Source: Candidatus Saccharimonadota bacterium (GTDB lineage Bacteria; Patescibacteriota; Gracilibacteria; BD1-5; UBA2023). Taken from it: 32,000 bases of DNA. The position numbers and the translations under genes were made by a program. How positions within the stretch are numbered: position 1 is the stretch's first letter; every line of letters starts with the position of its first letter. Below are positions 838 to 30,122 of the stretch, piece after piece. The notes under the pieces are model-generated. The model searched no databases. It saw nothing but the letters and a program-made list of their open reading frames with translations, and was not told where the DNA came from. The DNA lies in contig BAAFHK010000002.1 of assembly GCA_042852035.1 (NCBI GenBank), forward strand, positions 30,001 through 62,000. Direction: 5' to 3'.

Positions 838-1596
838 ATGAACTTTCAAGAACAACTTCGTTATGATAAACTTCAACTTATGAAGTCAAGACGACAAAAA
901 AGAGCAACTTCAACTGTTCAGGCAACAACAGAAACAACAAAAGTTGCCGTTGAATGACCAAAAACCATAGAAATCGCAGGCAAGAAAATCCTTGCGATGC
1001 CACTTGAAACTATGGCACTCACCCCAGAACAACAAAAGAAGTTTGAAGAAGCAGGTGGTCTTATGAACCCTGCGCCAAAAATAGCAACAGCAGATAAAAA
1101 TCAAGACAAGATGATGTATTGGTCTGAAAGTTTTGAAACACTTCAAGCAGAAATCGACGGAACGCTTTACAAGGGTTTTGACCTCTTCAAAAAAGTTTAT
1201 GAAGCATTCCCAGATATTCGTTCTATGACAAAAGGCGAAGCCACAGAAGCAGGACTTTACCCAACTATTCATTACCGCAACTTTGCCGCTCGCAAATGGA
1301 TGGCAGAGATGAACGGCGGACACCTTGCTACTTTGGATAAGGATTATAATGGCGAACTCCGTGATATCTTTAACGCAGCAGAAGGAAAAACAAACCTTGA
1401 AAAACTCGCTGCTATGGGTCAAGCACCGCTTGGCTGACGTTATGCTAATGATGCGAAGGTGTATTACTTGGGGGATTGGGCGGGATTGGGTTCTGGCTCG
1501 CTCAATGGTGATGGTGATGTCCGCGTGTTGGGCGCGCACCGTGATAAGGTCGGGCGCTGACAATTACTGATATTGGCAGGGGAGCGCTGTCAGTAG
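838..1596 (+). CDS. DGR variable (target) protein, C-terminal VR. Start may be 838, 880 or 997; the C-terminal frame is uncertain because of a 1-nt indel in the VR.
   Basis: Frame open from ATG 838 with UGA(Gly) at 955, 1435 and 1558. WMAEMNGGHLATLDKDYNGELRDIF resembles a C-type-lectin/DUF1566-like scaffold. The last ~55 codons are the VR. Confidence 0.75.
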
Positions 1597-1610
1597 TGTC
1601 GTTGTATTGG
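1429..1610 (+). repeat. DGR variable repeat (VR)
   Basis: 182 nt matching TR 2248-2428. All 15 differing sites are A in TR (11 A->G, 4 A->T). One of them carries an extra T (VR 1549-1550 GT vs TR A2368). Confidence 0.9.
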
Positions 1611-1744
1611 ATAAATAGTCTCTTTGACACTTTGTCTCTTTTGGTTTCAGAAAATCGTATATACAGTTAATTTTGAAGTCTATATAACAGATGGGATATC
1701 CGCTTTATGCGGATTTTTCTGTATTTCTTCATTTCAAAAACCGT

Positions 1745-2098
1745 ATGGCTACTTATGACCTTCTTCCTGTATATAAGACAACCTATGATTTTCTATTACA
1801 GACTTTTCAATTTTCAAAAACATTTACCCGTGAATACAAATACACTATCTGACAAGAACTCAAAAATGAAACCATACGACTCATACTGGCAATATATCGT
1901 GCCAATGGATCACAAGCAAAAAGATATGAACTCCTTGATGATGCTCGGACAACATTGGAAACCATACGACTTCTTTTGCGTCTGACAAAAGACCTAAAAC
2001 AAATACCACTTTCAGATTTTGTATCACTGAATGAAAAAATAGAAAATATATCAAAACAGTTGGTCGGATGGCAGAAAATATCTGAACGGAAGATATAA
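1745..2098 (+). CDS. avd: accessory variability determinant (Avd-like four-helix-bundle protein), 117 aa, one UGA(Gly) at 1850
   Basis: Translation MATYDLLPVYKTTYDFLLQTF...LLLRLTKDLKQIPLSDFVSLNEKIENISKQLVGWQK has the helical Avd/23S-IVS-protein pattern. It sits between the target gene and TR. Confidence 0.75.
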
Positions 2099-2247
2099 TC
2101 CTAAAAATGTATGCGGGCGAGAATTGTCTATTTTATGGAATGGGCAAGAGTGCCTTTTTTTATCGGAAATTCACTACATTTTTGTAGTATTAAAAGATGG
2201 TGTCCTGGTATTTTTTAGGATACCACAAAAAAGTAATTTCTTTTCCA

Positions 2248-2428
2248 CTTGGCTGACGTAATGCTAATGATGCGAAGGTGTATAACTTGGGGAATTGGGC
2301 GAAATTGGGTTCTGGCTCGCTCAATGGTGATGGTAATGTCCGCGTATTGGACGCGCACCGTGATAAGACGGACGCAGACAATAACTGATATTGACAGAGG
2401 AACGCTGTCAGTAGTGTCGTTGTATTGG
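2248..2428 (+). repeat. DGR template repeat (TR)
   Basis: Invariant, adenine-rich copy of the VR lying 28 nt upstream of the RT start. Its reading frame holds AAT/AAC codons and three TGA codons. It ends in the hairpin TGACAG-N7-CTGTCA. Confidence 0.9.
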
Positions 2429-2456
2429 TTAATAATTGGCATACATTTTTAGGATT

Positions 2457-3635
2457 ATGTTTTTACTTGAAGATATTTTCAGTGCGTATTACGATTGTCG
2501 TAGAAACAAAAGAAATACACTTGGTGCTTTGGAGTTTGAACTTCATTATGAAACCGAGTGTATTCGTTTATTTGATGACATTATTCATAAAAGATATGTG
2601 TTATTACCAAACACTGCTTTTATCGTGCGCGACCCCGTCCAGCGTGAAATACTTGCCAGTCATTTTCGTGACCGTATTATTCACCATCTTATAGCAAGCA
2701 GGCTTGAACCGCACCTTGAAAAACTCCTTATACACGATGTGTATAGTTCCAGAAAAGAAAAATGAACGCACTATGGCATCAAACGAATAGAAAAGTTTAT
2801 GCGCTCGGCATCTGACAACTACCAGCGTGATGCTTATGTTTTGAAACTGGATATTTCAGGTTTCTTTATGGGTATCAATAGGGAACTTTTATTTGGGAAA
2901 ATACAAACCATAATACAAAGATATATGCCACCAGACGAGCAAGATATTCTCCTATATCTCCTTGATATTATCATATTTACAGATGTAAAAAAGAATATTC
3001 GCATTAAGTGAAATAAAACTGACTGGGTATGACTTCCAAAAAGTAAAAGTCTCTTTTATGCCAAACATTGATGTGGTCTGCCTATATGAAACCTGACGAG
3101 CCAGATATTTTCAAATATCTATATGAACGAGTTTGATGTGTTTATCAAAAAGACCTTAAAGATACAGTATTATGGAAGATATGTTGATGATTTTATCCTT
3201 ATCCACCAAGATAAAGAATATCTCAAATCGTGTCTTCCAAAAATACGACAGTATCTCATAGAGCATCTTTGACTGACGCTCCATCCCAAGAAGATATATC
3301 TCCAACCAATAAAAAATGGTGTATTATTCCTTGGAACATATATCAAACCGTGGCGAAAGTATGTGGGAAGACGAACAAAATGAAACTTTTATGAATGTAT
3401 AACTCATATCAATAAAAGATTAAAGAATACTGAACTACTTTCTGATACTGAAAAAAATCGTATTTTGGCACAAATGAACTCATATTTATGATTTTGTAGG
3501 CATTCAAATAGTTATTTATTAAGGAGCAAGATGATATGACTTCTACAACCAAGTTTCTGGGGCTATTTTGATATAGATATTTCATTTATAAAAATCACTA
3601 TCAAACCAAATCCCCAGAAACATATTAAAAAATAG
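2457..3635 (+). CDS. DGR reverse transcriptase, 392 aa, 9 in-frame UGA(Gly)
   Basis: Joins track ORFs 2436..2765 and 2799..3011 with untracked pieces. Motifs: FRDRIIHHL, GLPIGNLTSQIFSNIYMNEFD (the IGxxxSQ signature of DGR RTs) and YGRYVDDFILI (YxDD). Confidence 0.9.
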
Positions 3636-3638
3636 GAA

Positions 3639-4028
3639 TTATATTTTTACATCAAAATTATTCTTTAAGGCATTCAATTCTTCATCAGTGAGTTCATGGT
3701 CGTATATCATTTCTATTACTCTTTTTGCAAAGTTATCTATTCCAGAACAATCACTCACACCAATCCATATACCAAACGGATTATGCGTATGGGGAACTCA
3801 TTTTTCAATTAAAATATCCAAATCAACGATTTTTTCTATATCAGAAAATGTAATCCATGTGTCAAAATCAGCATATTGATTATCATCCGCGTCTTCATCA
3901 TCGTAATAAGGAAGATACATATCACCATCATTAATGAAGCCCTTATTATATAAAGTATCAATAAGTTCATTTTGTTCTACATAATTACAAATAGCAGTAT
4001 AGGTAAATGGGGAAATATGGGTTAACAT
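3639..4028 (-). CDS. hypothetical acidic protein, 129 aa, one UGA(Gly)
   Basis: Track ORF 3798..4028 continues through TGA to TAA at 3639-3641. It converges on the RT gene with a 3-nt gap. Confidence 0.55.
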
Positions 4029-4175
4029 AGGGAAGAAGTGGTTAAAAAGTTATAAGTGTGATTGTTTCACATATACCCATAAATTATTTCCAACTTTTTC
4101 TCAAATCTTTTTTGAAAAATGTATCAAAACCTATTACCAGATTAAAAATATATATTTTTATGTAGGAAAACAAAC

Positions 4176-4203
4176 TTGACTTTCGTAATCATTTTCATAT
4201 ATT
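4176..4203 (+). promoter_or_regulatory. candidate promoter TTGACT-N16-TATATT
   Basis: TTGACT at 4176-4181 and TATATT at 4198-4203. The predicted start near 4210 coincides with the 5' end of an acceptor-stem-like helix. Confidence 0.4.
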
Positions 4204-4295
4204 TCGCGCAGTGCTAAAACGGTTTCGACTTTTATTCCTTGAAGAAAAAGTTCTAAGACTAACTTTTTAGCACCGCCATGTTTCAGTATAAAAAA

Positions 4296-4526: not shown

Positions 4527-4889
4527 TTAAATAACTTTTTCTAAGTTCAGCTCAGGATAATGTTCTTCTGCATGGCAGTTATGACATAAGAGTATGCATG
4601 ATTGGATTTCTTTCTCGAATGCTTCCTGTGTTCTATTTGATAGAGATCGGACATCGAGCTTAAATACTTTCTTGCTCGGATCGGTATGATGAAATGAGAG
4701 TGCACCAAGATTTTTCTTGTAACCACATCTCATGCATACTCATCCAAACCGCTCAATCAGTTCTTGTTTTCTTTTGAAGCCACGAACTTTCTGAGTCGGG
4801 TAACTCTGATGTTGTTTGTTTTTGCAGAAGATGGAACAAAACAATTTTTGTTTCCCTGACAATGCATTTCAGCATATGACACAGTTCAT
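4527..4889 (-). CDS. HNH homing endonuclease, 120 aa, two UGA(Gly), antisense inside the intron
   Basis: MNCVICGNALSGKQKLFC...GALSFHHTDPSKK...LLCHNCHAEEH carries a zinc-finger-like CxxC and the HH...N...CHNCH motif. Its TAA stop (4527-4529) overlaps the 5' splice junction. Confidence 0.8.
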
Positions 4890-5127
4890 AGCGGAAATAT
4901 AGCAAAATATGAAAAATTTACAAGGGCGGTTATGAGAGCAATCTCATAATGTTTATCTGTCAAATTCGGGGAAACCTTCTTCTTGCAATGAGTGAGAAAT
5001 GGCAATCCCGAGCCAAGTTCGTTCTAGAACGAAAAGGTGTAGAGACTAGACGGCAGACATCCGATTCGGATGAAGGGATAGTCCAGACTTCAAACCCGAA
5101 AGGGGTAGTGAAAACTATGGAAGTAAG
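4528..5127 (+). mobile_element. group I intron (tRNA-type, IC3-like core) in the anticodon loop
   Basis: The 5' exon ends in U and the intron ends in G. Core strings CGGGGAAACC, GGCAATCCCGAGCCAAG, GGTGTAGAGACTAGACGGCAG and GATAGTCCAG match the conserved P3-P8 core of cyanobacterial/proteobacterial tRNA introns (from memory). Confidence 0.8.
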
Positions 5128-5235: not shown

Positions 5236-6282
5236 TTATTCTCGAAATTCTCGAAAAGTTGGAAATAATCTTGCAAAAAACACTTCAGTTTTTGCCTCCA
5301 TTCGTTTAAAGTAAATTCCTACAAAGATAATTCCTATACCAATTCAAGAAAGAACAAAAGGAAATAGTAAGCTTCATTCAAAAACATTATAGGAAAGATA
5401 GCTAATATAACCGAAAATACCCAGAGCTCCAAAGATAACAAAAGTTCTTCTTAAAACAATCATGCCCAAGATAAGAAATCCGATATTAATCATACAATAA
5501 ATTATTGGTCACCAAAATGTTCCTGAATGCATCATGGATAAGGATCACCAGAATGTTATGGCTCAAAACAAAGCGATCCAAAATCAGAAATCAGGCCTTC
5601 TCTTATTATAGATATCTATAACCAAACTTCCAATAATCATAAGTATTCCAAATACAAATGATATATTTCTTTTTGTCTCGTATCCTGAGCTATAAGAGTC
5701 ATATAAAACATCTCGAAAAAGATAATCTCAGATATCCATACTCATATACCAAAGCGTAAGCGCAACGGGCATGAGCATAAAAGGATATCTGTAACGAGAA
5801 AATGCGAAACAGGCTCAAATAAGTGTTCATACTTCCATCATAAGCCATTTTCCATCGATATAAACATGATAAGAATGATAACTTGTTGGTGCGTACCATA
5901 AGCCCATTAACTTTTGTATAGTGTAGATTACAAGTGGAATGAGTGCAATGCCCATTGTTGCAAAGATTCATGCAGGAATTATATATCATCGTTTCTTTAG
6001 GGAATCAGCTAATCCGAATGCCACGAATAAATAGAGAGTTGCGATAATGAATCATGCCAAATCACCGAAAGATTCCCAAGCCATCCCCAGAAAAAATGAC
6101 ATAGCACCAATGGCGATTCATCCTCCCAAATAGTAAAGAATATTTATAAATGAGAATTTTGCAGTGCGTATATCGGGTACTGTATTCAAGAAGTTCCAAA
6201 GCAAAGAAACTTGAGTTGTTGAAATAATTCCTTGATTTGCAGCATTCTCGAGATCAGATTGAGCGATTTTTATTGTTTCCAT
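5236..6282 (-). CDS. multi-pass integral membrane protein, 348 aa, 13 in-frame UGA(Gly)
   Basis: Continuous minus-strand frame from ATG 6282 to TAA 5236. It has repeated hydrophobic segments with UGA at Gly-like positions. Only a 96-aa piece appears in the standard-code track. Confidence 0.7.
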
Positions 6283-6737: not shown

Positions 6738-6876
6738 TCACACGTTGTCGTTCCGAACGACCCGAACCTTAACATTCCATATACAAGAAGACGATCGTTT
6801 CTGTCAAAAGAAACAATCTTGTAATCGTACAAAACAAAATTCAAAATCCTTCCGAATTTATTCGGAGGGTGCTACG

Positions 6877-8351
<1,475 letters not shown>

Positions 8352-8675
8352 TTAAGAGATTACAAGAAATCGTCTTCTGGTGTATGGAATGATAAGTGTT
8401 CGTATGAACCTTAACACACTTGAAATTAAGAATGTTATTCTAAATACTAAAAAAAACGAGAAACATTGCAATTAAACCAAATAATAATGAATAAATAATA
8501 ATGAACAACTATGGTTTCCATAATAATTCATTCTTCATTTTTCATTCTCAATTTAGTTTATTCTGTTTCCATCATTAATGTATTCAAGATTCTATTCATA
8601 CCAACAAACTAAATGTAAATCAAGCGAGAATAAAAAGCACAATTTATTTCTGAGCAATCAGAAATACACCTTTGT

Positions 8676-11772
<3,097 letters not shown>

Positions 11773-11962
11773 ATATGCTTTTTATTCTTACTCGAACATT
11801 GGTTCGTTGGTATGAATAGAAACTTGAAACATATAATGGAAACGCTCGCAATGTCATCGTACTGTATGCAAAGAAAATATCTTTCATACAGAGAAGTAAA
11901 TAGAACATTCAATCTTAATTCAAGTGGGGAAAATTGTAAATAAACCAAATTTCTCCTCAAAG

Positions 11963-12078
<116 letters not shown>

Positions 12079-15487: not shown

Positions 15488-16681
15488 ATGTCTACTTTTG
15501 ATCGTAGCAAGCCACATATGAATGTTGGTACCATTGGTCACGTTGATCACGGTAAGACAACTTCAACGGCTGCATTTACATTTGTTCTCGCTCAGAAATA
15601 CGGAGGAGAGACAAAAAAGTATGATGAAATCGATGCTGCTCCAGAAGAAAAAGCACGTGGTATTACTATTAATACTGCACACGTTGAGTATCAAACTGCA
15701 AATCGTCACTACGCTCACGTTGATTGTCCTGGACATGCTGACTACGTGAAGAACATGATTACTGGTGCTGCTCAGATGGATGCTGCGATTCTCGTAGTAG
15801 CTGCTACTGATGGTCCAATGGCTCAAACTCGTGAACATATTCTTCTTGCTCGCCAAGTTGGTGTTCCTTACATCGTTGTTTGGATGAATAAGTGTGATAT
15901 GGTTGATGATGTAGAAATGCTTGATCTCGTTGAGATGGAAATCCGCGAACTTCTTTCAAAATATGAATTTCCTGGTGATACTCTTCCAGTTATCCGTGGT
16001 TCAGGTCTTGTTGCCCTTGAGAACCCTACTGATATGGAAAAGCCATACGGAGCAAAAGAAGTTATTGCGCTTTTTGAAGCACTTGAAGCTTATGTTCCAG
16101 TTCCTGAGAGAGATCTCGATAAGCCATTCCTTATGCCAGTTGAAGATGTCTTCTCTATTAAGGGACGTGGTACTGTAGTTACTGGAAAAATTGAACAAGG
16201 TATTATTAAGCTCAATGATGAAGTAGAAATCGTTGGTATCCGTGATACTCGAAAGACAACTGTTACTGGTATCGAAATGTTCCACAAGCTTCTTGATCAA
16301 GGTCAAGCTGGTGATAATGCTGGTCTTCTCCTTCGAGGTATTGAACGAACTGATGTTGAACGTGGACAGGTTCTTGCTAAGCCAGGTTCTATTAAGCCTC
16401 ATACTAAGTTTGAAGCAGAAGTATATGTACTTACGAAAGATGAAGGTGGACGTCATACTCCATTCTTCCAGGGTTATAAGCCTCAGTTCTACTTCCGTAC
16501 TACTGATGTAACTGGTTCTATCGAGCTTCCTGCTGGAGTAGAAATGGTTATGCCTGGTGATAACATCAAGATGACTATCGAGCTTGGTGCTCCAATTGCT
16601 ATGGACCAAGGTCTTCGCTTCGCGATTCGTGAAGGTGGTCGAACTGTTGGTTCAGGTGTTGTTGCAAAAGTTATTGCTTAA
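15488..16681 (+). CDS. tuf: elongation factor Tu, 397 aa, no UGA
   Basis: [17 protein letters not shown] and NKCD GTPase motifs with full-length EF-Tu similarity. Confidence 0.97.
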
Positions 16682-19174: not shown

Positions 19175-21760
19175 ATGTCAGACACACAGGAAAACTTCGA
19201 ATCAACAGAATCAGATAACGCTTCAGTTAATAATACCCCACAGGCCATGAAGGGGGTAACTTATGATGGAGATCAAAATCGAAATATCGTCGATGAAATG
19301 GAAACTTGCTATCTCGATTATGCAATGAGTGTAATCGTTCAGCGTGCTCTTCCGGATGTGAGAGATGGACTCAAGCCAGTACATCGTCGCATTCTTTATG
19401 CAATGCATGATACAGGACTTCGTGCAACAGGGAAGTATCGTAAGTCAGCAACAGTAGTTGGTGAAGTGCTCGGTAAGTATCACCCACATGGAGATATAGC
19501 AGTATATGACTCAATGGTTCGTATGGCACAAGATTTTTCTCTTCGTTATCCTCTTATAGATGGACAAGGAAACTTTGGATCTATGGATGGGGACAATGCA
19601 GCAGCAATGCGTTATACAGAAGTAAAAATGGACAAACTCGGTGAAGCAATGCTTGCTGATATCGAAAAGGAAACGGTTGATTGGAGAGATAACTATGATG
19701 CATCCAAACAGGAACCAACCGTTCTTCCAACTAGAATCCCGAACCTCCTTCTCAATGGAGTTATGGGTATTGCTGTCGGTATGGCTACCAATATTCCTCC
19801 TCATAATCTTGGAGAACTTATCGACGCTCTTATCTATATCCTCGGTCATGAATCAAAAGAAACTATTTCTATAGAGGACCTCCTCCAATTTATCCAAGGA
19901 CCTGATTTTCCGACGGGAGGTATTATTTATAATAAGAAAGATATCCTTGAGGCTTATGCTCGCTGACGAGGATCAGTTGTTATGCGAGGTCGAGCAAATA
20001 TCGAAGAAATGAAAAATGGAAGAGATGCCATCGTTGTAACTGAGGTTCCATATCAAATGAATAAAAAAGAATTCGTAGAAAAGGTAGCGGATCTTGTTCT
20101 CGAAAAAATCATCGTAGGAATCAGTGAAATTCGAGATGAATCCAATAAGGAAGGAGTCCGAATCGTTTTCGAGCTGAAGCGAGATGCCTTCCCCAAAAAG
20201 ATTTTAAATCAGCTCTATAAGCTTACTCCTCTCCAGACAAGTTTCTCATATAATATGATTGCGCTTACAGGAAGAGGGCTCCAGCCAAGGCTCTTTAATC
20301 TCAAAGAGATGCTCATGGAGTTTATCGCTCATCGTGATGAAGTCATCGTCAGACGAACTCGATATGACCTTGCTATTGCCGAAGCGAGAGCTCACATCCT
20401 CGAAGGACTCAAAATTGCTCTGGATAATATCGACGCAGTTATTAAGACGATTAAAGAATCAAAAACTCGAGAAGATGCACACGTTTCTCTTATGCAAAAA
20501 TTTGCTCTTTCAGAGAGACAGGCAACAGCAATTCTCGAAATGCAGCTTCAACGCCTTGCTTGACTTGAGCGGAAAAAGATTGAGGATGAGCTTGCTGAGA
20601 AGATTGCGCTTATTGCAGACTTAAAGGATATCCTCTCAAAACCAGCTCGAGTAAACGATATTATGAAGAATGAATTCCTTGAGCTCAAAGAGAAGTATGG
20701 TGATCCAAGAAGAACTGAGGTTCACCTGGGTGCTATCGGTGAGTTTAATCCAACTGATACAATTCCAAATGAGGATGTCGTCGTTACCTTCTCAAAAAAT
20801 GGTTACATTAAACGTGTGAAGTCTTCAAGTTTCCGATCACAAAGAAGGGGTGGAAAGGGAATTACTACAGCAGTAAAAGATGAAGACGAGATTGCATCAA
20901 TTCTCTCAACTCGAAATCACAATACGCTCCTGTTTTTTACGAACACGGGTCGAGTCTTTCGTCTCCCTGCGTATGAGATCCCAGAAATGCAGAGAACTGC
21001 GAAATGACAGCCAATTGTTCAATCACTCGCACTCGCTAAAGATGAGAGTATTTCTGCCATTCTTGACCTCACGAATACAGAAGGGAAGAACCTCTTTCTT
21101 ATTTCGGCTCTCGGAACAGTAAAAAGAATTGATATTTCTGAAATTGCGAATATTCGCGCTAGTGGTCTTATCGTTATGAAGCCTCATGATGGAGACTCTC
21201 TTCGTTGGGTTCGAGTGACTGATGGTACTGATAATGTGCTTATGGTTTCTCGTGGAGGAAAGGCAATCCAATTTCCAGAAACAGATGTTCGTGTCATGGG
21301 GCGCGCTGCCGCATGAGTCCGAGGTATGAAGGTTGCAAGCGGTGATTCACTTATCGAGGGTTGCGTTGCATGAAAGGAGGATACGTATGTCTTTACGGTC
21401 ACAGAAAATGGAATGGGAAAAATTTCTGGGCTTGCTGAATATCGGGAGCAGTGACGTGGTTGAAGTGGAGTAAAAGTCGGTGCTATGACAGAAAAGACAG
21501 GGCAAGTTATCGGGGCATTTACTCTCACAGAAGAGCAGAAGAAAAACGGATCTGTTATTCTCATTTCGAAAGACTGACAAACTATACGAGTGCCACTCGC
21601 AGATGTTCGAGTCACGGGCCGAGCTACCCAATGAGTCATTCTCGCTAAACTCAAAGATGATGCTGATAGCTTCACAAGTGCTACGGTTGTCGACAAAGTT
21701 GAGTGAGAAGATGAAGGAGCTGATGTAGGTAATGGTGATGCTTCGCCAGATGTCGCATAA
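19175..21760 (+). CDS. gyrA: DNA gyrase subunit A, 861 aa, 10 in-frame UGA(Gly)
   Basis: [19 protein letters not shown] and the active-site region AAMRYTE. C-terminal beta-pinwheel repeats carry UGA in GRAAAGVRG, QGRGGSG and GRATQGV. Confidence 0.95.
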
Positions 21761-21813: not shown

Positions 21814-21842
21814 AAAATCATACCATCAAGGTATGATTTTTT
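21814..21842 (+). terminator. rho-independent terminator after gyrA
   Basis: AAAATCATACC-ATCAA-GGTATGATTTT followed by a T-run. Confidence 0.65.
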
Positions 21843-21865
21843 CTTCTTATAAAAGAAGCATATAT

Positions 21866-23569
21866 ATGCTTCCGGTAGTGCTTGTTATTCCTCTTCAGCT
21901 TTTTGCGACTGAAACAATTACGAAAGAGGCAACTTATTACTCTGACTCATTTCAATGAGGACATACGGCAAATGGAGATACTTTCGATCAAAATAGCTAT
22001 TCTGCAGCTATGTGTGATATTCCTCTTGGTCAATACCTCCATGTTTCAAAATGAAATACGTGAGTGGTTGTCGAGCTTAATGATCGTCCGAATTGTTCTC
22101 GGTACCCAGAAGTTATTGATCTGAGCAGAAGAGCTTTTCAGGTATTTGCTCCACTGAGCGCCTGAAGAGTAGAGGCGCTAAATGTAACACCGATTGGCAC
22201 AGCGCCAATGGGCCAAACAAAGTGATTTCTTCCATCAGATAGCTTTCGTCACCTTTGAGTAACTCTCACAAACGATATCCCAAATATTTTGTTTTCGGGT
22301 GATACTATTGAGGTGTCTGGAAATATTACAACAGCCAATCAGTATGTTCTAGTCTATGCTCAGAAGGAAGGGAATCCACCTGTAAATAAGCTTCTAAAAG
22401 TTGGGAAAGATAAGACTTTTAAATGATACATTACTCTTCCTGATATTACAGGAGAACTCGTGTTCGTAGTTGCAAGTGGGAATAGTTTTGATACAGATAA
22501 ATACGTTACTTTGACCCTTATATGAAAAGACTCACTTTCATACCCGAATATTCCATCCTCTTCTCGAGTAAAGATTTCTCCGAAGCTGACGTATTCTCCG
22601 AATGGTGAACCGTTGATTCGTCTCCCAAAAAATATCTATGCTGAACTGAAGATTACTCAAGACAAAAGAATGTTTCAAACACAGTGAAATAGTCTCTTGC
22701 TTTCGAATCTACCACTTTCTGTTGGAAAGGCTCAAGTTTCAATCAATTGATTCTGACTTTCTAGTTCATCACCTCTCGATAGAGGTATTTCTTATCCGAG
22801 TCTTTTTTCTGGATCAATCCTCCTTGAGAGGTCACATGATACGATTGGTTGAGATCTTGTAAGTATTCAAAACAGGAATACTTTTGCGAAATTTCGATTT
22901 AAGTCACCTACCGACTATAAGCTCAGAAGTAAGTACTATATCTTATCACCTAATGGAGACGTAAAAGAAATGGCTTTCCCAAAATCTTATATTGGCGACG
23001 ATGGTTTTTTGCGCTCCTGATTTCTGGTGAGTTCTGTCTTTCGACTTGATGGGGAAGGGACCTATCTCCTTGAAATTGTTCGAGAAGATGGGATAGCTTT
23101 TGCAAATATTTCTGTTACAAAATGAAATGCTTGGCCTGTAGTTGAAATGCTTTCAGACAAGCAAATTTCACAAATTCGAGATGATAGAGCTCAGGTAATA
23201 GTTTCTACGGTCAATCGAATCAATGATCTCAGAAAAAATCTTGGCAGAAATTCTGTTTCACTCGATGATACTCTAACAAAACTTGCCCAGGCAAAAGTCG
23301 ATGATATGATCAGGCGATGATATGAGTGACACGCTGATCCAGATGGGAACTATATTGACTACCTTGCTCTAAAGCTAGGAATCAATCCAGGAGGGGCAAT
23401 CGGAGAAAATATAGGGTATTGAACCGTATCGGACCTCTCCCTAGAAGACGGACTTGAAGAATCATGAGTTCACCGTATGAATATCTTGCAAGATGCTTGG
23501 AATCGAGTTGGTATTGGTTATGGAGTAAATGAAGGTAAGGTATACCTTGTTCATATTTTCTGAGAGTAG
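21866..23569 (+). CDS. secreted protein with N-terminal RlpA-like double-psi beta-barrel and C-terminal CAP/SCP (YkwD-like) domain, 567 aa, 19 in-frame UGA(Gly)
   Basis: ATYYSDSFQGGHTANGDTFDQNSYSAAMCDIPLG...VVVELNDRPNCSRYPEVIDLSRRAF is RlpA-like. The C-terminus AQAKVDDMIRRGYEGHADPDG...GENIGYG...SGVHRMNILQDAWNRVGIGYG is CAP-like. No ORF >=60 aa exists in this frame under the standard code. Confidence 0.75.
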
Positions 23570-23724: not shown

Positions 23725-26103
23725 ATGAAAACTCGAATCTTGTTCCTATTTACCATTCTTTTTGGACTCTTTCCACTTGTAAGAGTTGATGCAGCAGCTC
23801 TCTGTGCACAGGTTATTCAGTACGCTGAGAATAATGACACTGGAGAATGTCAGGCATACCCAACTCCTTGTGATGTTCCTTCTGGTTGGACAGCTGTTCG
23901 AGAGTGTAGCATAAAAACTCCGTCAAAAAACTTTTCTCCAAAATTTGAAGTGCAAAAGTTCGCTTCATGTGAGGCAATGGAAGATAAAATGATCGATATT
24001 CTCAAACGATATCAATCCAGGTATTGGTATCCTACGTATACTCGTTGAGGGGTTATGTTTGCTAATGATGCGGTATCAGTCTGAGCGGTAGCAGAAAAAT
24101 CAGTTGCATCACCTGCACCTACGATGGCGCCTCTCGGTGATGGGGCTTGAGCGGGCACTGTTTCGACTACCAACATTCAAGTACTCGGAGTAGATGAGTC
24201 TGATACAGTGAAAACAGATGGAAAGAATCTCTATAGCTACTCTGAAGAATCTCGAGAAGTTCGTATTGTTCAGTCTAGTACCCTCAATCTCCTTTCAACC
24301 ATAAAACTCCCCGAAACTTTCAGTTCTGTTACTCTCTATCTTTCAAAAGGAAAGCTCGTTCTCGTTGGTACAAAATATACGTATTCAGGAAATAATTGGA
24401 ATTATCGCTGGTACGCCCCAGAATCAAAATCTATAGTTGCTGTATACAATGTTTCAACTCCAGAAAAACCAATTCTCGAAAGATATTCTCAAATTGATGG
24501 AAATTATAGAGAGTCACGACTTATTGGGGATATGCTTTATATGGTTTCATCGAGTTATCTCCGTATGCCTCCAGTGTATTCTACATTGTACGCGAAGAAA
24601 ACTACGGGATTCGATGACAGTATCAATGCAATAGGAAAGGACTTTAGTCTTAAAAATATTTCTCCTGAGATTCGTGAGAGCATCCGCACCAATAAAGGAA
24701 AGGTCCTTCAGTCAATTCGTTCGTCTGTTGCGAATTGTAAGGATGTCACCTTCGTCCTCCCTGATGATGAAACGCTTAAAAGTATAGATTTTAGTCCAAC
24801 TTTTGTCTCACTCTCTTCTGTTAATATTAGCGATCCGACTTCAAAAATGAAATCAGAACTCCTTTTTGGGGATGTCTCGCAGATTCATATGAGCCAATCC
24901 GCTCTCTATATTACTTCAGCAGTAAGTGTTTCAGGAAACTCGACTTCACCATGTCCAATAAACGCAGAATGTGCGATGCCAGCCTATTCATCTACGATAT
25001 CAAAAACTCTTGTTCATAAATATGCTCTTGCATGATGAGGTCTCACTTATAAATACTCAGTTACAGTAGACGGATATCCGATGAACCAGTATTCTATGGA
25101 TGAAGATGCCGGCTGAAACTTCCGACTTGTTACTCAAAATTATGCTTGGTCGAGCCAAGGTAATCAAAATACTACAGAACTTAATATTATAGGGACAAAT
25201 GGGAAGGTGATTGGCTTTTTAAAAAATATTGCCCCAGGAGAAAACTTTCAGTCGGCTCGTTTTATCGGAAAAAGACTTTATCTGGTCACATTCCAGCAAA
25301 TTGATCCATTTTTTGTAGTTGACCTCTCAGTTCCAACAGCTCCAGTCCTTCTCGGTGAACTGAAGATGCCTGGATATTCAACCTACCTTCATCCCTATGA
25401 TGATGATCGAATCATCGGACTTGGTTATGATACGAAGACAAACCAGTGGGGAGGAACCCAAAATGGAGGAATAAAAATTGATCTCTATAATATACGTGAT
25501 GTGAAGAATCCTCTTCAGGAATCTTCTCTTGTTCTCGGTGATGCTGGTTCTTCATCTGAGGTTCTTACAAATCCACGCGCTTTCGTCTGGTATAAAGAAA
25601 AGAAACTTCTCCTCCTCCCAGCGACTCTGATGAAAAGCGCGAATGATAAAAACGATCCATACAGAGCTCAGAGCGCATTCCAATGACTTCTTTGAATAAG
25701 TATTAATCCAGGTTCTGTTATCGAGAAATTTCGCATTACTCATATAACCCCTGATGCTTCTCTTGAGAAAAAATGGAAGGATGATTGTGCTCAATATACA
25801 AGTACAGCAACATCGTGTAAAACCCTCTTAGATGGATCAAGTTATTGTGGTGGGTCATCATGGGTCCCTTGATATTGTTATGCAGGATCTACGGTAGATA
25901 GTTACCTCGCGAGTAATCTTTGGAATTATTCTCGTGACTTCGTGACGAGAGCACTCTATATCGGAAATACTTTCTATTCACTCTCAGAATGAGGAATTAG
26001 ATCTTGGGATTTCGCGAATACTACTAAACCACTCAATACCATTACGTTCGTTTCTAAACCGGTAAGTTCTCCTATCTATCCAGTTCCTATGATGGTAAAG
26101 TAA
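23725..26103 (+). CDS. secreted beta-propeller domain protein (PF09826-like), 792 aa, 10 in-frame UGA(Gly)
   Basis: Joins track ORFs 23725..24048, 24208..25035 and 25207..25686 in one frame. Signal peptide MKTRILFLFTILFGLFPLVRVDA. STTNIQVLGVDESDTVKTDGKNLY and GYSTYLHPYDDDRIIGLG are typical of this family. Confidence 0.75.
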
Positions 26104-27420: not shown

Positions 27421-29202
27421 ATGCACCGCACCCATACCGCTGGCGAGCTCAACGCATCACATATCGGACAAGAAGTCACCCTCTCCGGATGGGTGGCGAA
27501 TCGCCGTGACCATGGTGGTCTCATCTTCATCGATCTCAGAGACCGATACGGTATCACTCAGACCGTCTATGATCCGACAGAGAATAAGGAGGCTCACGCT
27601 GTGGCAGACACATTCCGTTCTGAATATGTCGTGAAACTCACAGGAAAGGTGAGACGAAGACCAGAAGGTCAAGAAAATGAGAAGCTCTCAACAGGAGAGA
27701 TCGAAGTCATCATCTCTCACGCTGAAGTCTTATCCAAGTCTGAAGTCCCACCATTCGAAATCACTGAGTATACCGGAGCGGCCGAAGAAATCCGCCTCAA
27801 GTACCGCTACCTCGATCTCCGCAGAAAGAGTGTGTTCGATAAGATCGAGTTCCGAGCACGGATGAATAAGTTCACTCGTGACTGGTTTACAGAACACGGA
27901 TTCCTCGAAGTACAGACTCCGATATTCACGGTCTCATCTCCAGAAGGAGCGAGAGACTATCTCATCCCATCACGACTTCATCACGGGAAGTTCTACGCGC
28001 TCCCACAAGCACCTCAGCAGTACAAGCAACTTCTCATGGTGGGAGGAGTAGACAAGTACTTCCAGATCGCACCATGTTTCCGAGACGAAGACCCTCGCGC
28101 GGATCGTCACTCATGTGAGTTCTACCAGATCGACTGTGAGATGAGCTTCGTCGAACAGGAAGATGTATTCGCTGTCGCAGAACCGTTCGCGAAAAACTTA
28201 ATCGAAACTATTACAGAGAAAAAGATAATTTCTCTGAACACAGATAAAACATTCAAAAGAATGACCCATAAAGAAGCCATCGATACCTATGGTTCAGACA
28301 AGCCAGATATCCGCTTTGATATGCACTTTGAAGACCTAACGCAAAACTTTGCGACAAGTGGTTTTTCGCTCTTTTCTCGTGCAGTGGCTGAGGGTGGAGT
28401 CGTGAAAGCGATGAAACTCGAGAACAAAGTCCTCTCACGAAGTGAGATCGACTCACTCACGGAAGTGGCGAAATCTCATGGAGCCGGAGGACTCGCATAC
28501 ATCATATACGAGGCTGATGGTCCAAAAAGTCCTATTCTCAAATTCTTCACGGGAGATGAACTCGCGACCCTCGAAGCGAAGCTCGCACCAAAAGTGGGAG
28601 ATATGATCTTCTTCGGAGCGGGTGAGTATAAGGTCGTCTGTAAAGTCCTCGGACAAGTGCGACTCGCGTGTCGTGATCGATTCGATCTCGTGAATCGAGA
28701 TGAGATAGCATTTTGCTGGGTCACCGACTTCCCGATGTACGAACAAAAGGATGATGGAAGCTATGACTTCGAACACAATCCATTCTCAATGCCTCATGGA
28801 GGACTCAAAGCCTTCGAAGGCAATCCTGATCCACTCTCGATCTACGGATGTCAGTATGACCTCGCGTGTAATGGGTATGAGATCCTCTCTGGGTCTATCC
28901 GAAATCACTCGGCTGAGGCACTCGTGAAAGCGTTCAACATAGTCGGGAAGGGGGAAGCGGAAGTGAAATCAAAGTTCGGTGCGATGTATACCGCGTTCCA
29001 ATACGGTGTCCCTCCACATGGAGGATTCGCGTTCGGATTCGATCGTCTCCTCATGATACTCCGCGACGAGGAGAACATCCGTGAGATTTATGCATTTCCG
29101 AAGTCGGGGAAGGCAGAGGATGCGATGATGAATGCTCCGTCAGAGGTGGATGAGATGCAACTCAGAGAATTGCATATTAAGGTGAGGGAGACGAATAAGT
29201 AA
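27421..29202 (+). CDS. aspS: aspartyl-tRNA synthetase, bacterial type, 593 aa, no UGA
   Basis: MHRTHTAGELNASHIGQEVTLSGWV..., class II motifs FRDEDPRADR and GGFAFGFDRL, and a GAD insertion-domain length. Confidence 0.95.
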   Translation: MHRTHTAGELNASHIGQEVTLSGWVANRRDHGGLIFIDLRDRYGITQTVYDPTENKEAHAVADTFRSEYVVKLTGKVRRRPEGQENEKLSTGEIEVIISHAEVLSKSEVPPFEITEYTGAAEEIRLKYRYLDLRRKSVFDKIEFRARMNKFTRDWFTEHGFLEVQTPIFTVSSPEGARDYLIPSRLHHGKFYALPQAPQQYKQLLMVGGVDKYFQIAPCFRDEDPRADRHSCEFYQIDCEMSFVEQEDVFAVAEPFAKNLIETITEKKIISLNTDKTFKRMTHKEAIDTYGSDKPDIRFDMHFEDLTQNFATSGFSLFSRAVAEGGVVKAMKLENKVLSRSEIDSLTEVAKSHGAGGLAYIIYEADGPKSPILKFFTGDELATLEAKLAPKVGDMIFFGAGEYKVVCKVLGQVRLACRDRFDLVNRDEIAFCWVTDFPMYEQKDDGSYDFEHNPFSMPHGGLKAFEGNPDPLSIYGCQYDLACNGYEILSGSIRNHSAEALVKAFNIVGKGEAEVKSKFGAMYTAFQYGVPPHGGFAFGFDRLLMILRDEENIREIYAFPKSGKAEDAMMNAPSEVDEMQLRELHIKVRETNK

Positions 29203-29207
29203 TTTAT

Positions 29208-30122
29208 ATGAGAAAAATTTTTGATTCTAAAATTTTTGATTGAATTGAAATTACTTCCCAAATTGAATTTGAATCTTTTTGTAGGAAACATTCTGAATTT
29301 TGTAAATCTTATTTGCGAGCATGAATTAAAAATACCTATAGAAATGAATATGAGGAAATCTATCAATCTTTCTGAGAGATTTTTCCTGTAAAAGGAATTA
29401 TAGAAGAAGTAAGTAGAAATGATGAAAAATTTACCCAGAGATTCTGGGAATTAGAAATTTATAATGCACTCAGAAAGATAAGTGGAAGTTTAAACAGGAC
29501 TAAACAATGAGTAGACTTTAAATTTTTACCACAATGATATTCCGCCTTTATTGATATAGAATGTGTAGCGCCATGAAGATGAACTGGGAAAACGTCCATT
29601 GCAGAATATGATAATTATATGAAAGTCCAAATATCTCCCCCAGATATTGATGAGAGAGTTGTTTTAAGAATTATTAAAAAAATTGATGAAAAACTTAAAC
29701 ACAAAAACCAAACATTTTCTTGTACACGACCTTATATTATAGCAATAAATACAGCAAATCTACCATGGGAGTTCCATACTAAAAGAATTTATCAAACACT
29801 TTTTGCACTTAAATATCCGTTATCAAACAATCCCTTGAGATGGTGGAGTGAGAAAAATGTAAAACTATGATATTTCGCCACGGATAAGTATAAATATATT
29901 AGTGCAATTATCTATAGTAATTGTCATCCAAATGAGTATAGAGAATGAAATCCTAATAGAAGACATTTGTATATGATCCATAACCCATTTGCACAATTTC
30001 CTATCAATAGGGTTACTTTTCCATTTTTCCAACATGTACTATTCAATCCTGAAACTCTTGAAATTATAGATGAAACATCAGATCCTAATGATATACCTGA
30101 ATGAACAATTATTAATTTCTAA
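29208..30122 (+). CDS. hypothetical protein, 304 aa, 10 in-frame UGA(Gly), very AT-rich
   Basis: ATG lies 6 nt after the aspS stop. The frame runs through track ORF 29619..29870 to TAA at 30120. Confidence 0.55.

Follow-up and report, generated by a model that had tools for sequence, protein, structure and literature searches.

A complete diversity-generating retroelement in a UGA=Gly bacterial genome, with a frameshifted variable repeat and a predicted RT-7-like leader RNA

The closest described counterpart of the element reported here is the diversity-generating retroelement (DGR) of Bordetella phage BPP-1 (mtd-avd-TR-brt), in which target gene, avd, template repeat (TR) and reverse transcriptase (RT) gene follow one another, the variable repeat (VR) lies at the 3′ end of the target gene, and the differences between TR and VR are confined to adenines. 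Its Avd is a four-helix-bundle accessory protein, its RT carries the motifs IGxxxSQ and Y(M/V)DD, and an RNA duplex joins the 3′ end of avd to sequence 3′ of TR (the avd:Sp "cPRT Stop" duplex, where Sp is the spacer, predicted in 207 other DGRs; bioRxiv 10.1101/2023.10.23.563531). We describe a DGR with each of these features, the duplex being predicted, in a 32,000-nucleotide stretch of contig BAAFHK010000002.1 (hereafter the window, to which coordinates refer unless another locus is named). The region at 838–3635 is a complete DGR cassette of ordinary, textbook layout in a genome in which UGA encodes glycine. It departs from BPP-1 in several respects: it is chromosomal, beside an rRNA operon in a code-25 bacterium, whereas BPP-1 is a phage; its target is a 259-residue protein of an unannotated family rather than a tail-fiber tip; it has ~146 nt of structured RNA 5′ of TR and 24 nt between TR and RT gene, where BPP-1 has a 140-nt Sp 3′ of TR with a priming adenosine (A56); it lacks a recognizable pair of initiation-of-mutagenic-homing sites (IMH/IMH*) or cruciform; and its RT has an insertion of ~45 residues between the two blocks that match the BPP-1 enzyme (bRT).

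A wider set of relatives is formed by the DGRs of candidate phyla radiation (CPR)/Patescibacteria and Bacteroidota (loci L018–L096), which share with the window the RT clade, small targets with a C-terminal VR and a hairpin module (P1, below) placed 5′ of TR on the RT strand. Their genomes use the standard code, in contrast to code 25 here, and their targets come from different families, such as Fib_succ_major in L020; the Patescibacteria loci that were inspected run target, leader, TR, avd and RT, whereas in the window avd stands ahead of the leader. DGRs are documented as common in CPR genomes (Paul et al, 2017, via PMC10221324), as had been stated when the locus was first noted. Since DGRs are already abundant in CPR bacteria and the layout is a standard one, the cassette in itself matters little; its modest originality lies in frameshifted VR alleles at adenine sites, in mutable UGA(Gly) codons within TR, and in the RT-7-like leader.

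A chromosomal DGR of a Gracilibacteria-type (code 25) bacterium is the best explanation of the locus, the mechanism proposed here included, and we put its probability at roughly 0.9. A transcript spanning the end of avd, the structured leader, TR and the start of the RT gene would be reverse-transcribed by an RT–Avd complex; the RT would misincorporate opposite template adenines, and the mutagenized complementary DNA (cDNA) would replace VR at the 3′ end of the target gene, rewriting ~27 codons for the end that binds ligand in a target protein that is small, divergent and probably C-type-lectin-like. Open reading frames (ORFs) and repeats of the window place the parts along the plus strand, which carries all of them, in the order promoter, target, avd, TR and RT, the gene order of the original prediction.

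The repeat pair carries the strongest evidence. On an alignment anchored by the TRs and VRs of related loci, VR (1426–1614, the last ~63 target codons) differs from TR (2245–2432, 188 nt with 48 adenines, 43 of them in its core at 2247–2402) by 16 substitutions, all 16 of them at TR adenines (12 A>G, 4 A>T), for which the chance expectation given the composition of TR is p ~4e-11. The original prediction had placed the pair at 1429–1610 and 2248–2428 and counted 15 adenine substitutions (11 A>G, 4 A>T) with none at other bases. All 15 hold on the anchored alignment, as does the lack of any non-adenine substitution inside the repeat; the pair is present and slightly longer than first drawn, the 16th substitution (A2247>G1428) lying just beyond those limits. 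That the repeats are otherwise identical needs amending, in that VR is also one base longer (an inserted T at 1550), a difference already implied by the earlier coordinates (182 versus 181 nt). Plain duplication is rejected by the adenine-only pattern. A second VR was sought within the 32-kb window and none was found, leaving a single VR.

The same footprint is visible across the protein family: among 16 close family members, the fraction of residues differing from the TR-encoded one is 0.60 at codons with an adenine in TR position 1 or 2 and 0.10 elsewhere (p 3e-9). In the target frame TR holds three UGA(Gly) codons (2254–2256, 2386–2388 and 2392–2394, with VR counterparts at 1435–1437, 1568–1570 and 1574–1576), and the third-position adenine of each is mutable; one has become UGG (Trp) in the window VR, while the last two positions are occupied in relatives by Gly/Trp, Cys, Val, Arg or Phe. 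UGA(Gly) in TR is a mutable codon yielding Gly, Trp or Cys, a route available only where UGA is a sense codon, such that a TR in a code-25 genome can use UGA itself as a diversifying codon.

The two proteins that would carry out the reaction are both recognizable. The RT gene (2457–3635, 392 codons, nine of them UGA=Gly; Pfam RVT_1) encodes IGNLTSQ and YVDD, which align to IGSLTSQ and YMDD of bRT and of which the first had been named from the outset as DGR-specific; the SQ motif is characteristic of DGR RTs (PMC3521204). Four-helix-bundle Avd is encoded at 1745–2098 (117 residues, one UGA within the TIGQEL motif) and matches Pfam bAvd at 55.6 bits (cut-off 40) and NCBIfam DivGenRetAVD at 49.9 bits, under its cut-off of 80. 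Grouping of the RT with group II intron or retron enzymes, the outcome first named as fatal to a DGR assignment, was not seen: a PDB search (a ranking by similarity, not a tree) puts bRT of the Bordetella phage DGR (8ub7) first at E 1e-31, ahead of a group II intron RT at 3.5e-8 and a retron RT at 3.5e-4. The best NCBIfam match is a group II intron RT/maturase model at 83.5 bits (cut-off 300); a DGR-RT model is absent from the nine RT families reported, and the library apparently lacks one. Rfam recovered neither a group II intron nor a retron RNA from the window, and with bRT the closest relative in PDB, identity as a group II intron or retron is rejected. The RT has 7652 homologues, the full-length close relatives listed being 383–392 residues long; one genome scan confirmed 572 relatives, the best of them 69% identical to the window RT, and the CPR/Patescibacteria and Bacteroidota members of the RT clade stand at 33–53% identity. 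Both proteins are intact and under purifying selection, with dN/dS (nonsynonymous over synonymous divergence) against two sister cassettes, L002 and L097, of 0.11–0.12 for RT and 0.12–0.14 for Avd.

A related locus, L010 (1–6600), encodes an RT 92% identical to that of the window together with two target–avd modules split by an insertion sequence (IS) with an rve integrase. Module 1 has a window-type target without a cognate TR; module 2 has a different 211-residue target whose VR pairs with a different TR. On this two-module layout, the same RT–Avd pair serves interchangeable TR/target modules.

Reading UGA as glycine is what makes these parts legible. Under the standard code the RT gene is interrupted by nine in-frame TGA codons, including that for the Gly of IGNLTSQ, and table 11 yields ORFs of at most 109 residues. 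The original prediction had stated this fragmentation; its corollary, that table-11 pipelines would miss the element, was overstated, for JGI, ENA, Logan and NCBI hold full-length close homologues of both RT and target. We aligned 103 RT homologues of ~50% identity, whose named sources include Bacteroidota and Candidatus Gracilibacteria (the latter being the name carried by close homologues). Six of the nine UGA codons fall in columns that are 79–100% Gly, one in a mixed N/D/G column and two in variable columns; four align to Gly residues of bRT. Since the columns are mostly Gly and none is Trp, code 25 (UGA=Gly) is supported over code 4 on comparative grounds, and code 4 (UGA=Trp) was rejected. 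A tRNA-Gly(UCA) is not among the six tRNAs of the window. The locus is a clean example of code-25 genomes requiring UGA=Gly translation before DGR parts become recognizable. Separately, EF-Tu (15488–16681, 397 residues) and AspS (27421–29202, 593 residues) contain no UGA codons, and several other genes have 10–19 each, among them the ORFs at 5236–6282, 19175–21760, 21833–23569, 23725–26103 and 29208–30122, which suggests that the reassigned codon is used unevenly between genes.

Full sister cassettes allow the history of the repeats to be followed. L002 (JGI, a 17-kb contig) and L097 (activated sludge) are ~90% identical to the window from 533/759 to 4218/4284, and their TRs differ from the window TR at non-adenine positions (10 sites in L002, a handful in L097). 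In all three lineages VR carries the variants of its own TR: non-adenine differences between VR and own TR inside the repeat number 0 in the window, 4 in L002 and 0 in L097 (each of the three also has one T>A at the 3′ boundary of the repeat), as against 3–14 when a VR is compared with the TRs of the other lineages. A VR not overwritten from TR would have drifted over the synonymous divergence (dS) that separates these cassettes (0.42–0.51 for RT); no such drift is seen, which supports the proposal that the element was recently active.

Two observations on these sisters concern their surroundings. In L097 the cassette is flanked by two copies (1–177 and 4035–4150, 94% identical) of the sequence found downstream in the window at 4103–4279, and the upstream context differs between the window, L002, L008 and L097 while the downstream context is common. 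Together these hint at tandem duplication, cassette mobility or chimeric assembly.

The claim that the element is intact does not extend to its target. As assembled, the target gene (838–1596, 252 residues, three in-frame UGA codons) is frameshifted past codon 237 by the inserted T1550, which directly follows a mutated TR-adenine position: VR reads GATAAGGTCGG against TR GATAAGA-CGG, an A>G change and then the extra base. The +1 shift scrambles the last 15 codons, such that the ORF (read with UGA=Gly) runs out of frame to a TAG at 1594–1596, ending in VGRGQLLILAGERCQ/HRDKVGRGQLLILAGERCQ, and the family C-terminus ...AVSSVVVLDK is lost. Without T1550 the gene would take the family frame (838–1618, 259 residues, TAG at 1616–1618) and end in SGADNYGYWQGSAVSSVVVLDK/HRDKSGADNYGYWQGSAVSSVVVLDK, in keeping with the SSVVVLDK-like C-terminus conserved in 15/16 homologues read full length. 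In an AlphaFold2 model of P0001, a relative 88% identical to the window target (tryptophan placed at UGA codons; pLDDT, the model confidence score, 89.7), the lost residues are the last three strands, with pLDDT 95–98. Because these conserved strands are lost, the allele as assembled is probably non-functional.

Whether T1550 exists in the cell is a narrower matter than the nature of the element, and we lean, by a little, toward a real allele. Neither the three TRs compared (window, L002 and L097) nor any other VR read (L001, L002, L003, L008/L009, L097 and L098) has the extra base, and being private to the window sequence it could instead be a consensus or assembly artifact of VR heterogeneity, the DGR being active and the real target intact. 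This account is a serious competitor, if the less favored one: DGR VRs are heterogeneous within populations, a classic source of local consensus errors that counts against T1550 as a real allele, and assembly breaks at the repeat are frequent in this family (L011–L013 start just 5′ of the RT gene and L008 ends soon after VR). It fits less well with the position of the base exactly at a mutated adenine site, in the context GG-T-CGG with no homopolymer, or with the state of the surrounding assembly, where EF-Tu, gyrA, AspS and RT are all unbroken, making general indel noise unlikely. Nor is T1550 the only frameshift of its kind. In P0003 (L008/L009) one base is deleted at a TR adenine (TR GACAGAGG, VR GGC-GGGG), and the P0003 sequence is identical in assemblies from two independent runs/samples.

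Purified bRT–Avd produces cDNA with ~0.1% one-base indels (PMC6182149). If T1550 is a real allele, the error-prone RT would have introduced it as a rare single-base indel at an adenine, leaving a temporarily null target that a later round of retrohoming could overwrite. One-base indels at template adenines may in this way give reversible null target alleles, an on/off switch arising as a by-product, and that two family members have VR alleles frameshifted at a template adenine bears on the host cost of DGR mutagenesis.

The frameshift could also be taken as a sign that the DGR has recently died, with relaxed selection on the target and the cassette a fossil. DGRs with recently inactivated parts are documented (PMC3521204), the L010 cassette is disrupted by an IS element, target homologues without adjacent avd or RT occur in L001, L003/L004, L006/L007 and L009, and the window target is itself out of frame as assembled. 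We nevertheless consider a dead element improbable: the window repeat has accumulated no non-adenine VR/TR difference despite a dS of 0.4–0.5 to its sisters, RT and Avd are full length with catalytic motifs present and low dN/dS, the promoter is a perfect consensus, and the leader RNA and long-range duplex are intact. The remaining alternative, that the locus is no DGR and instead a partial gene duplication beside an RT of group II intron or retron type, the adenine bias being due to chance or composition, could appeal to the NCBIfam group II maturase match (far under its cut-off) and is dismissed by the adenine-only pattern, the lead of bRT over the group II RT by 23 orders of magnitude, the SQ motif characteristic of DGR RTs (PMC3521204), the presence of Avd, the lack of intron or retron RNA in Rfam searches of the window, and the concerted evolution of TR and VR.

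The sequence around the template of this chromosomal DGR is predicted to be structured. A 25-nt inverted repeat (92% complementary) pairs 2090–2114, which overlaps the last avd codons up to and beyond the stop, with 2439–2463, which spans the AGGA and ATG (2457) of the RT gene. This long-range duplex brackets TR and closes the minimum-free-energy fold of 2080–2480 (z −6.15); a duplex occurs at the same place in L002, with one compensatory change from U-A to C-G, and in L010 and L014, where the sequences are unrelated. Between avd and TR lies a leader of 146 nt with conserved structure (RNA feature 2110–2246). It begins with a hairpin, P1 (2117–2156), whose internal loop is GAGAAUU/AAGAGUG, followed by a closing helix (GGAAA 2165–2169 with UUUCC 2242–2246) that encloses two inner hairpins (~2173–2190 and 2197–2227) and ends exactly where TR/VR homology starts. 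RNAalifold finds compensatory changes in 17/31 pairs of the leader across four distinct Gracilibacteria loci, and independent folds of six leader sequences arrive at the same architecture; for the closing helix the evidence is these six folds, the MAFFT alignment being out of register there and preventing a formal covariation count.

The Rfam RNA RT-7 (RF03028), a motif found near RT genes with no assigned function (Weinberg et al, 2017, PMC5737381), has the same architecture, in which a P1 hairpin carrying GAGA.../...AGAGUG loops precedes a helix that encloses two hairpins; that RT motifs other than RT-10 may belong to DGRs has been raised in that paper as speculation only. The RT-7 model itself finds no match in the window at 2050–2500 even at E<=10, and none at E<=0.1 in L002, L014 and the Patescibacteria loci tested. 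It does match the Bacteroidota locus L020 at 1171–1332 (74.8 bits, under the gathering score of 116.8), directly 5′ of the TR of that locus (1328–1522), which is where the leader sits in the window. A covariance model built from Gracilibacteria leaders only recovers the same stretch of L020. On these sequence comparisons we class the leader as RT-7-like and not as a member of RT-7, given that the RT-7 model misses the window and the link runs through shared architecture and through our own model reaching L020.

The P1 hairpin is the most widespread part. A P1-only model gave 56 matches at E<1 in 55 distinct DGR loci (666 kb of loci searched), all on the RT strand, and 51 of the matches lie outside the loci used to build it, among 85 other distinct loci searched. 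In the model-fitted alignment 96% of cells pair, with covariation of 0.95 as against 0.25 for shuffles and 0.10–0.16 for slid controls. In six loci with a located TR, P1 starts 135–215 nt 5′ of it, with avd either before the leader or after TR; for the CPR/Patescibacteria and Bacteroidota DGRs the distance is given as about 110–215 nt. An RT-7-like RNA at a fixed place 5′ of TR across distant phyla opens a testable route to understanding how template RNA is handled in the largest DGR clade.

By analogy with BPP-1, the duplex and the closing helix are proposed to assume the roles of the BPP-1 avd:Sp duplex and Sp, positioning the template and stopping cDNA synthesis, and the closing helix, at the TR boundary, may be the cDNA stop. 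A bolder reading, which we hold to be rather less likely than its converse, takes the leader together with the TR-bracketing duplex as an Sp equivalent that has moved to the opposite flank of TR. Were this correct, a very large clade (Patescibacteria, Gracilibacteria, Bacteroidota) would use an RNA geometry other than that of the solved structure to position, stop and perhaps prime reverse transcription, and the orphan Rfam motif RT-7 would gain a function.

The target belongs to a small family (48 word-indexed matches; 55 representatives at 50% clustering in a full profile search of 1.84 billion proteins), and L097 and L098 were the only loci that a metagenome scan with the protein profile returned. 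Conservation extends from about residue 40 through the C-terminus, while N-termini vary; in the window protein the N-terminus is a charged helix and a disordered stretch with no hydrophobic segment, in agreement with the initial statement that it has no obvious signal peptide. The target has no match in Pfam, NCBIfam or a PDB sequence search, and a Pfam scan of eight distant family members was likewise empty. Foldseek with the P0001 model, although that model is confident, gave no match at E<=0.001 against PDB or BFVD, a difference from Mtd, TvpA and Fib_succ_major/DUF1566-type targets, and neither Mtd nor TvpA is among the 50 PDB matches listed. C-type lectin domains predominate in that PDB list (1egg leading at E 0.04), and BFVD gives as its best match a phage protein named for the "Fibrobacter succinogenes major paralogous domain" (150 columns, E 0.006, probability 1.0). 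In profile–profile comparison with hhalign the family matches the L014 target (97%) and, more weakly, target B of L010 (71%), itself a weak Fib_succ_major match; against the canonical Fib_succ_major target of L020 it was not significant. An HLATLD...ELRDIY segment resembles, by eye, the helix of the lectin core, and as in C-type-lectin DGR targets VR encodes the last strands of the domain and a hydrophobic end (...AVSSVVVLDK, compared with ...LGFSVRCLRD in L020). The C-lectin/DUF1566-like segment first proposed upstream of VR thus goes undetected by the sequence libraries and is only weakly suggested by fold comparison; on these comparisons together, the target likely has a divergent C-type-lectin-like fold.

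A sigma-70-type promoter lies at 776–803, 5′ of the target gene, where the consensus promoter first reported was found to match at 12/12 positions (TTGACA, 16-nt spacer, TATAAT); it is kept in L002 and L008/L009. A conserved flank follows VR (1615–1722) and ends in a terminator-like hairpin (1698–1714) and a T run. This flank is kept in L002, L008/L009 and L003, and its first ~27 nt also in L001, even with no avd or RT downstream; a metagenome scan with a DNA pattern drawn from it gave no matches.

Several features of the cassette weigh against a DGR working as outlined. Both terminator-like hairpins found by a terminator scan (1698–1714 and 2142–2155) sit between the only strong promoter and TR. 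A search 3′ of VR for an IMH/IMH* pair or a GC-rich IMH found none that could be defined, homology ending at 1610–1614, and a DNA hairpin directly after VR is not significant (z −1.5). The 24-nt TR–RT spacer shows no BPP-1-like Sp with a priming adenosine. The lack of a signal peptide contrasts with the lipoprotein-like leaders of the relatives P0018 and P0036, and the four non-adenine differences inside the L002 repeat belong on the same side.

The window also carries an rRNA operon (6876–12078), six tRNAs, EF-Tu, S10, gyrA and aspS; with the rRNA operon, EF-Tu, gyrA and aspS present, a phage origin was rejected. Pfam found no matches in the neighboring ORFs at 3639–4028 (minus strand), 9–569 and 4527–4889. 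The first of these, directly after the RT gene, encodes an acidic protein of 129 residues, and the arrangement recurs 3′ of RT in L002, L010 and L011 (150 residues there) despite differing wider contexts; the gene could have an accessory role or simply be linked.

Upstream of the target gene, 656–720 is a perfect (AGCC)16 tetranucleotide repeat, ~55 nt 5′ of the target promoter's −35 box. At the corresponding site L008/L009 have one or two AGCC units and L002 has none, marking the expansion as private to the window lineage; it may act as a contingency (slippage) tract. A 30-nt inverted repeat (80% complementary, 761–790 and 1668–1697) brackets the whole target gene, one arm overlapping the −35 box and the other lying just before the terminator hairpin. 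The alignment with L008/L009 spans both arms, and the homology with L002 has the left arm at its edge.

Beyond the cassette, Rfam identifies a group I intron at 4909–5108 (70.9 bits, above the gathering score; also L002 7467–7664), outside rRNA and tRNA genes and syntenic in L002. It adjoins the ORF at 4527–4889 (minus strand), which encodes an HNH-like protein of 120 residues (CxxC...HH...CxxCH).

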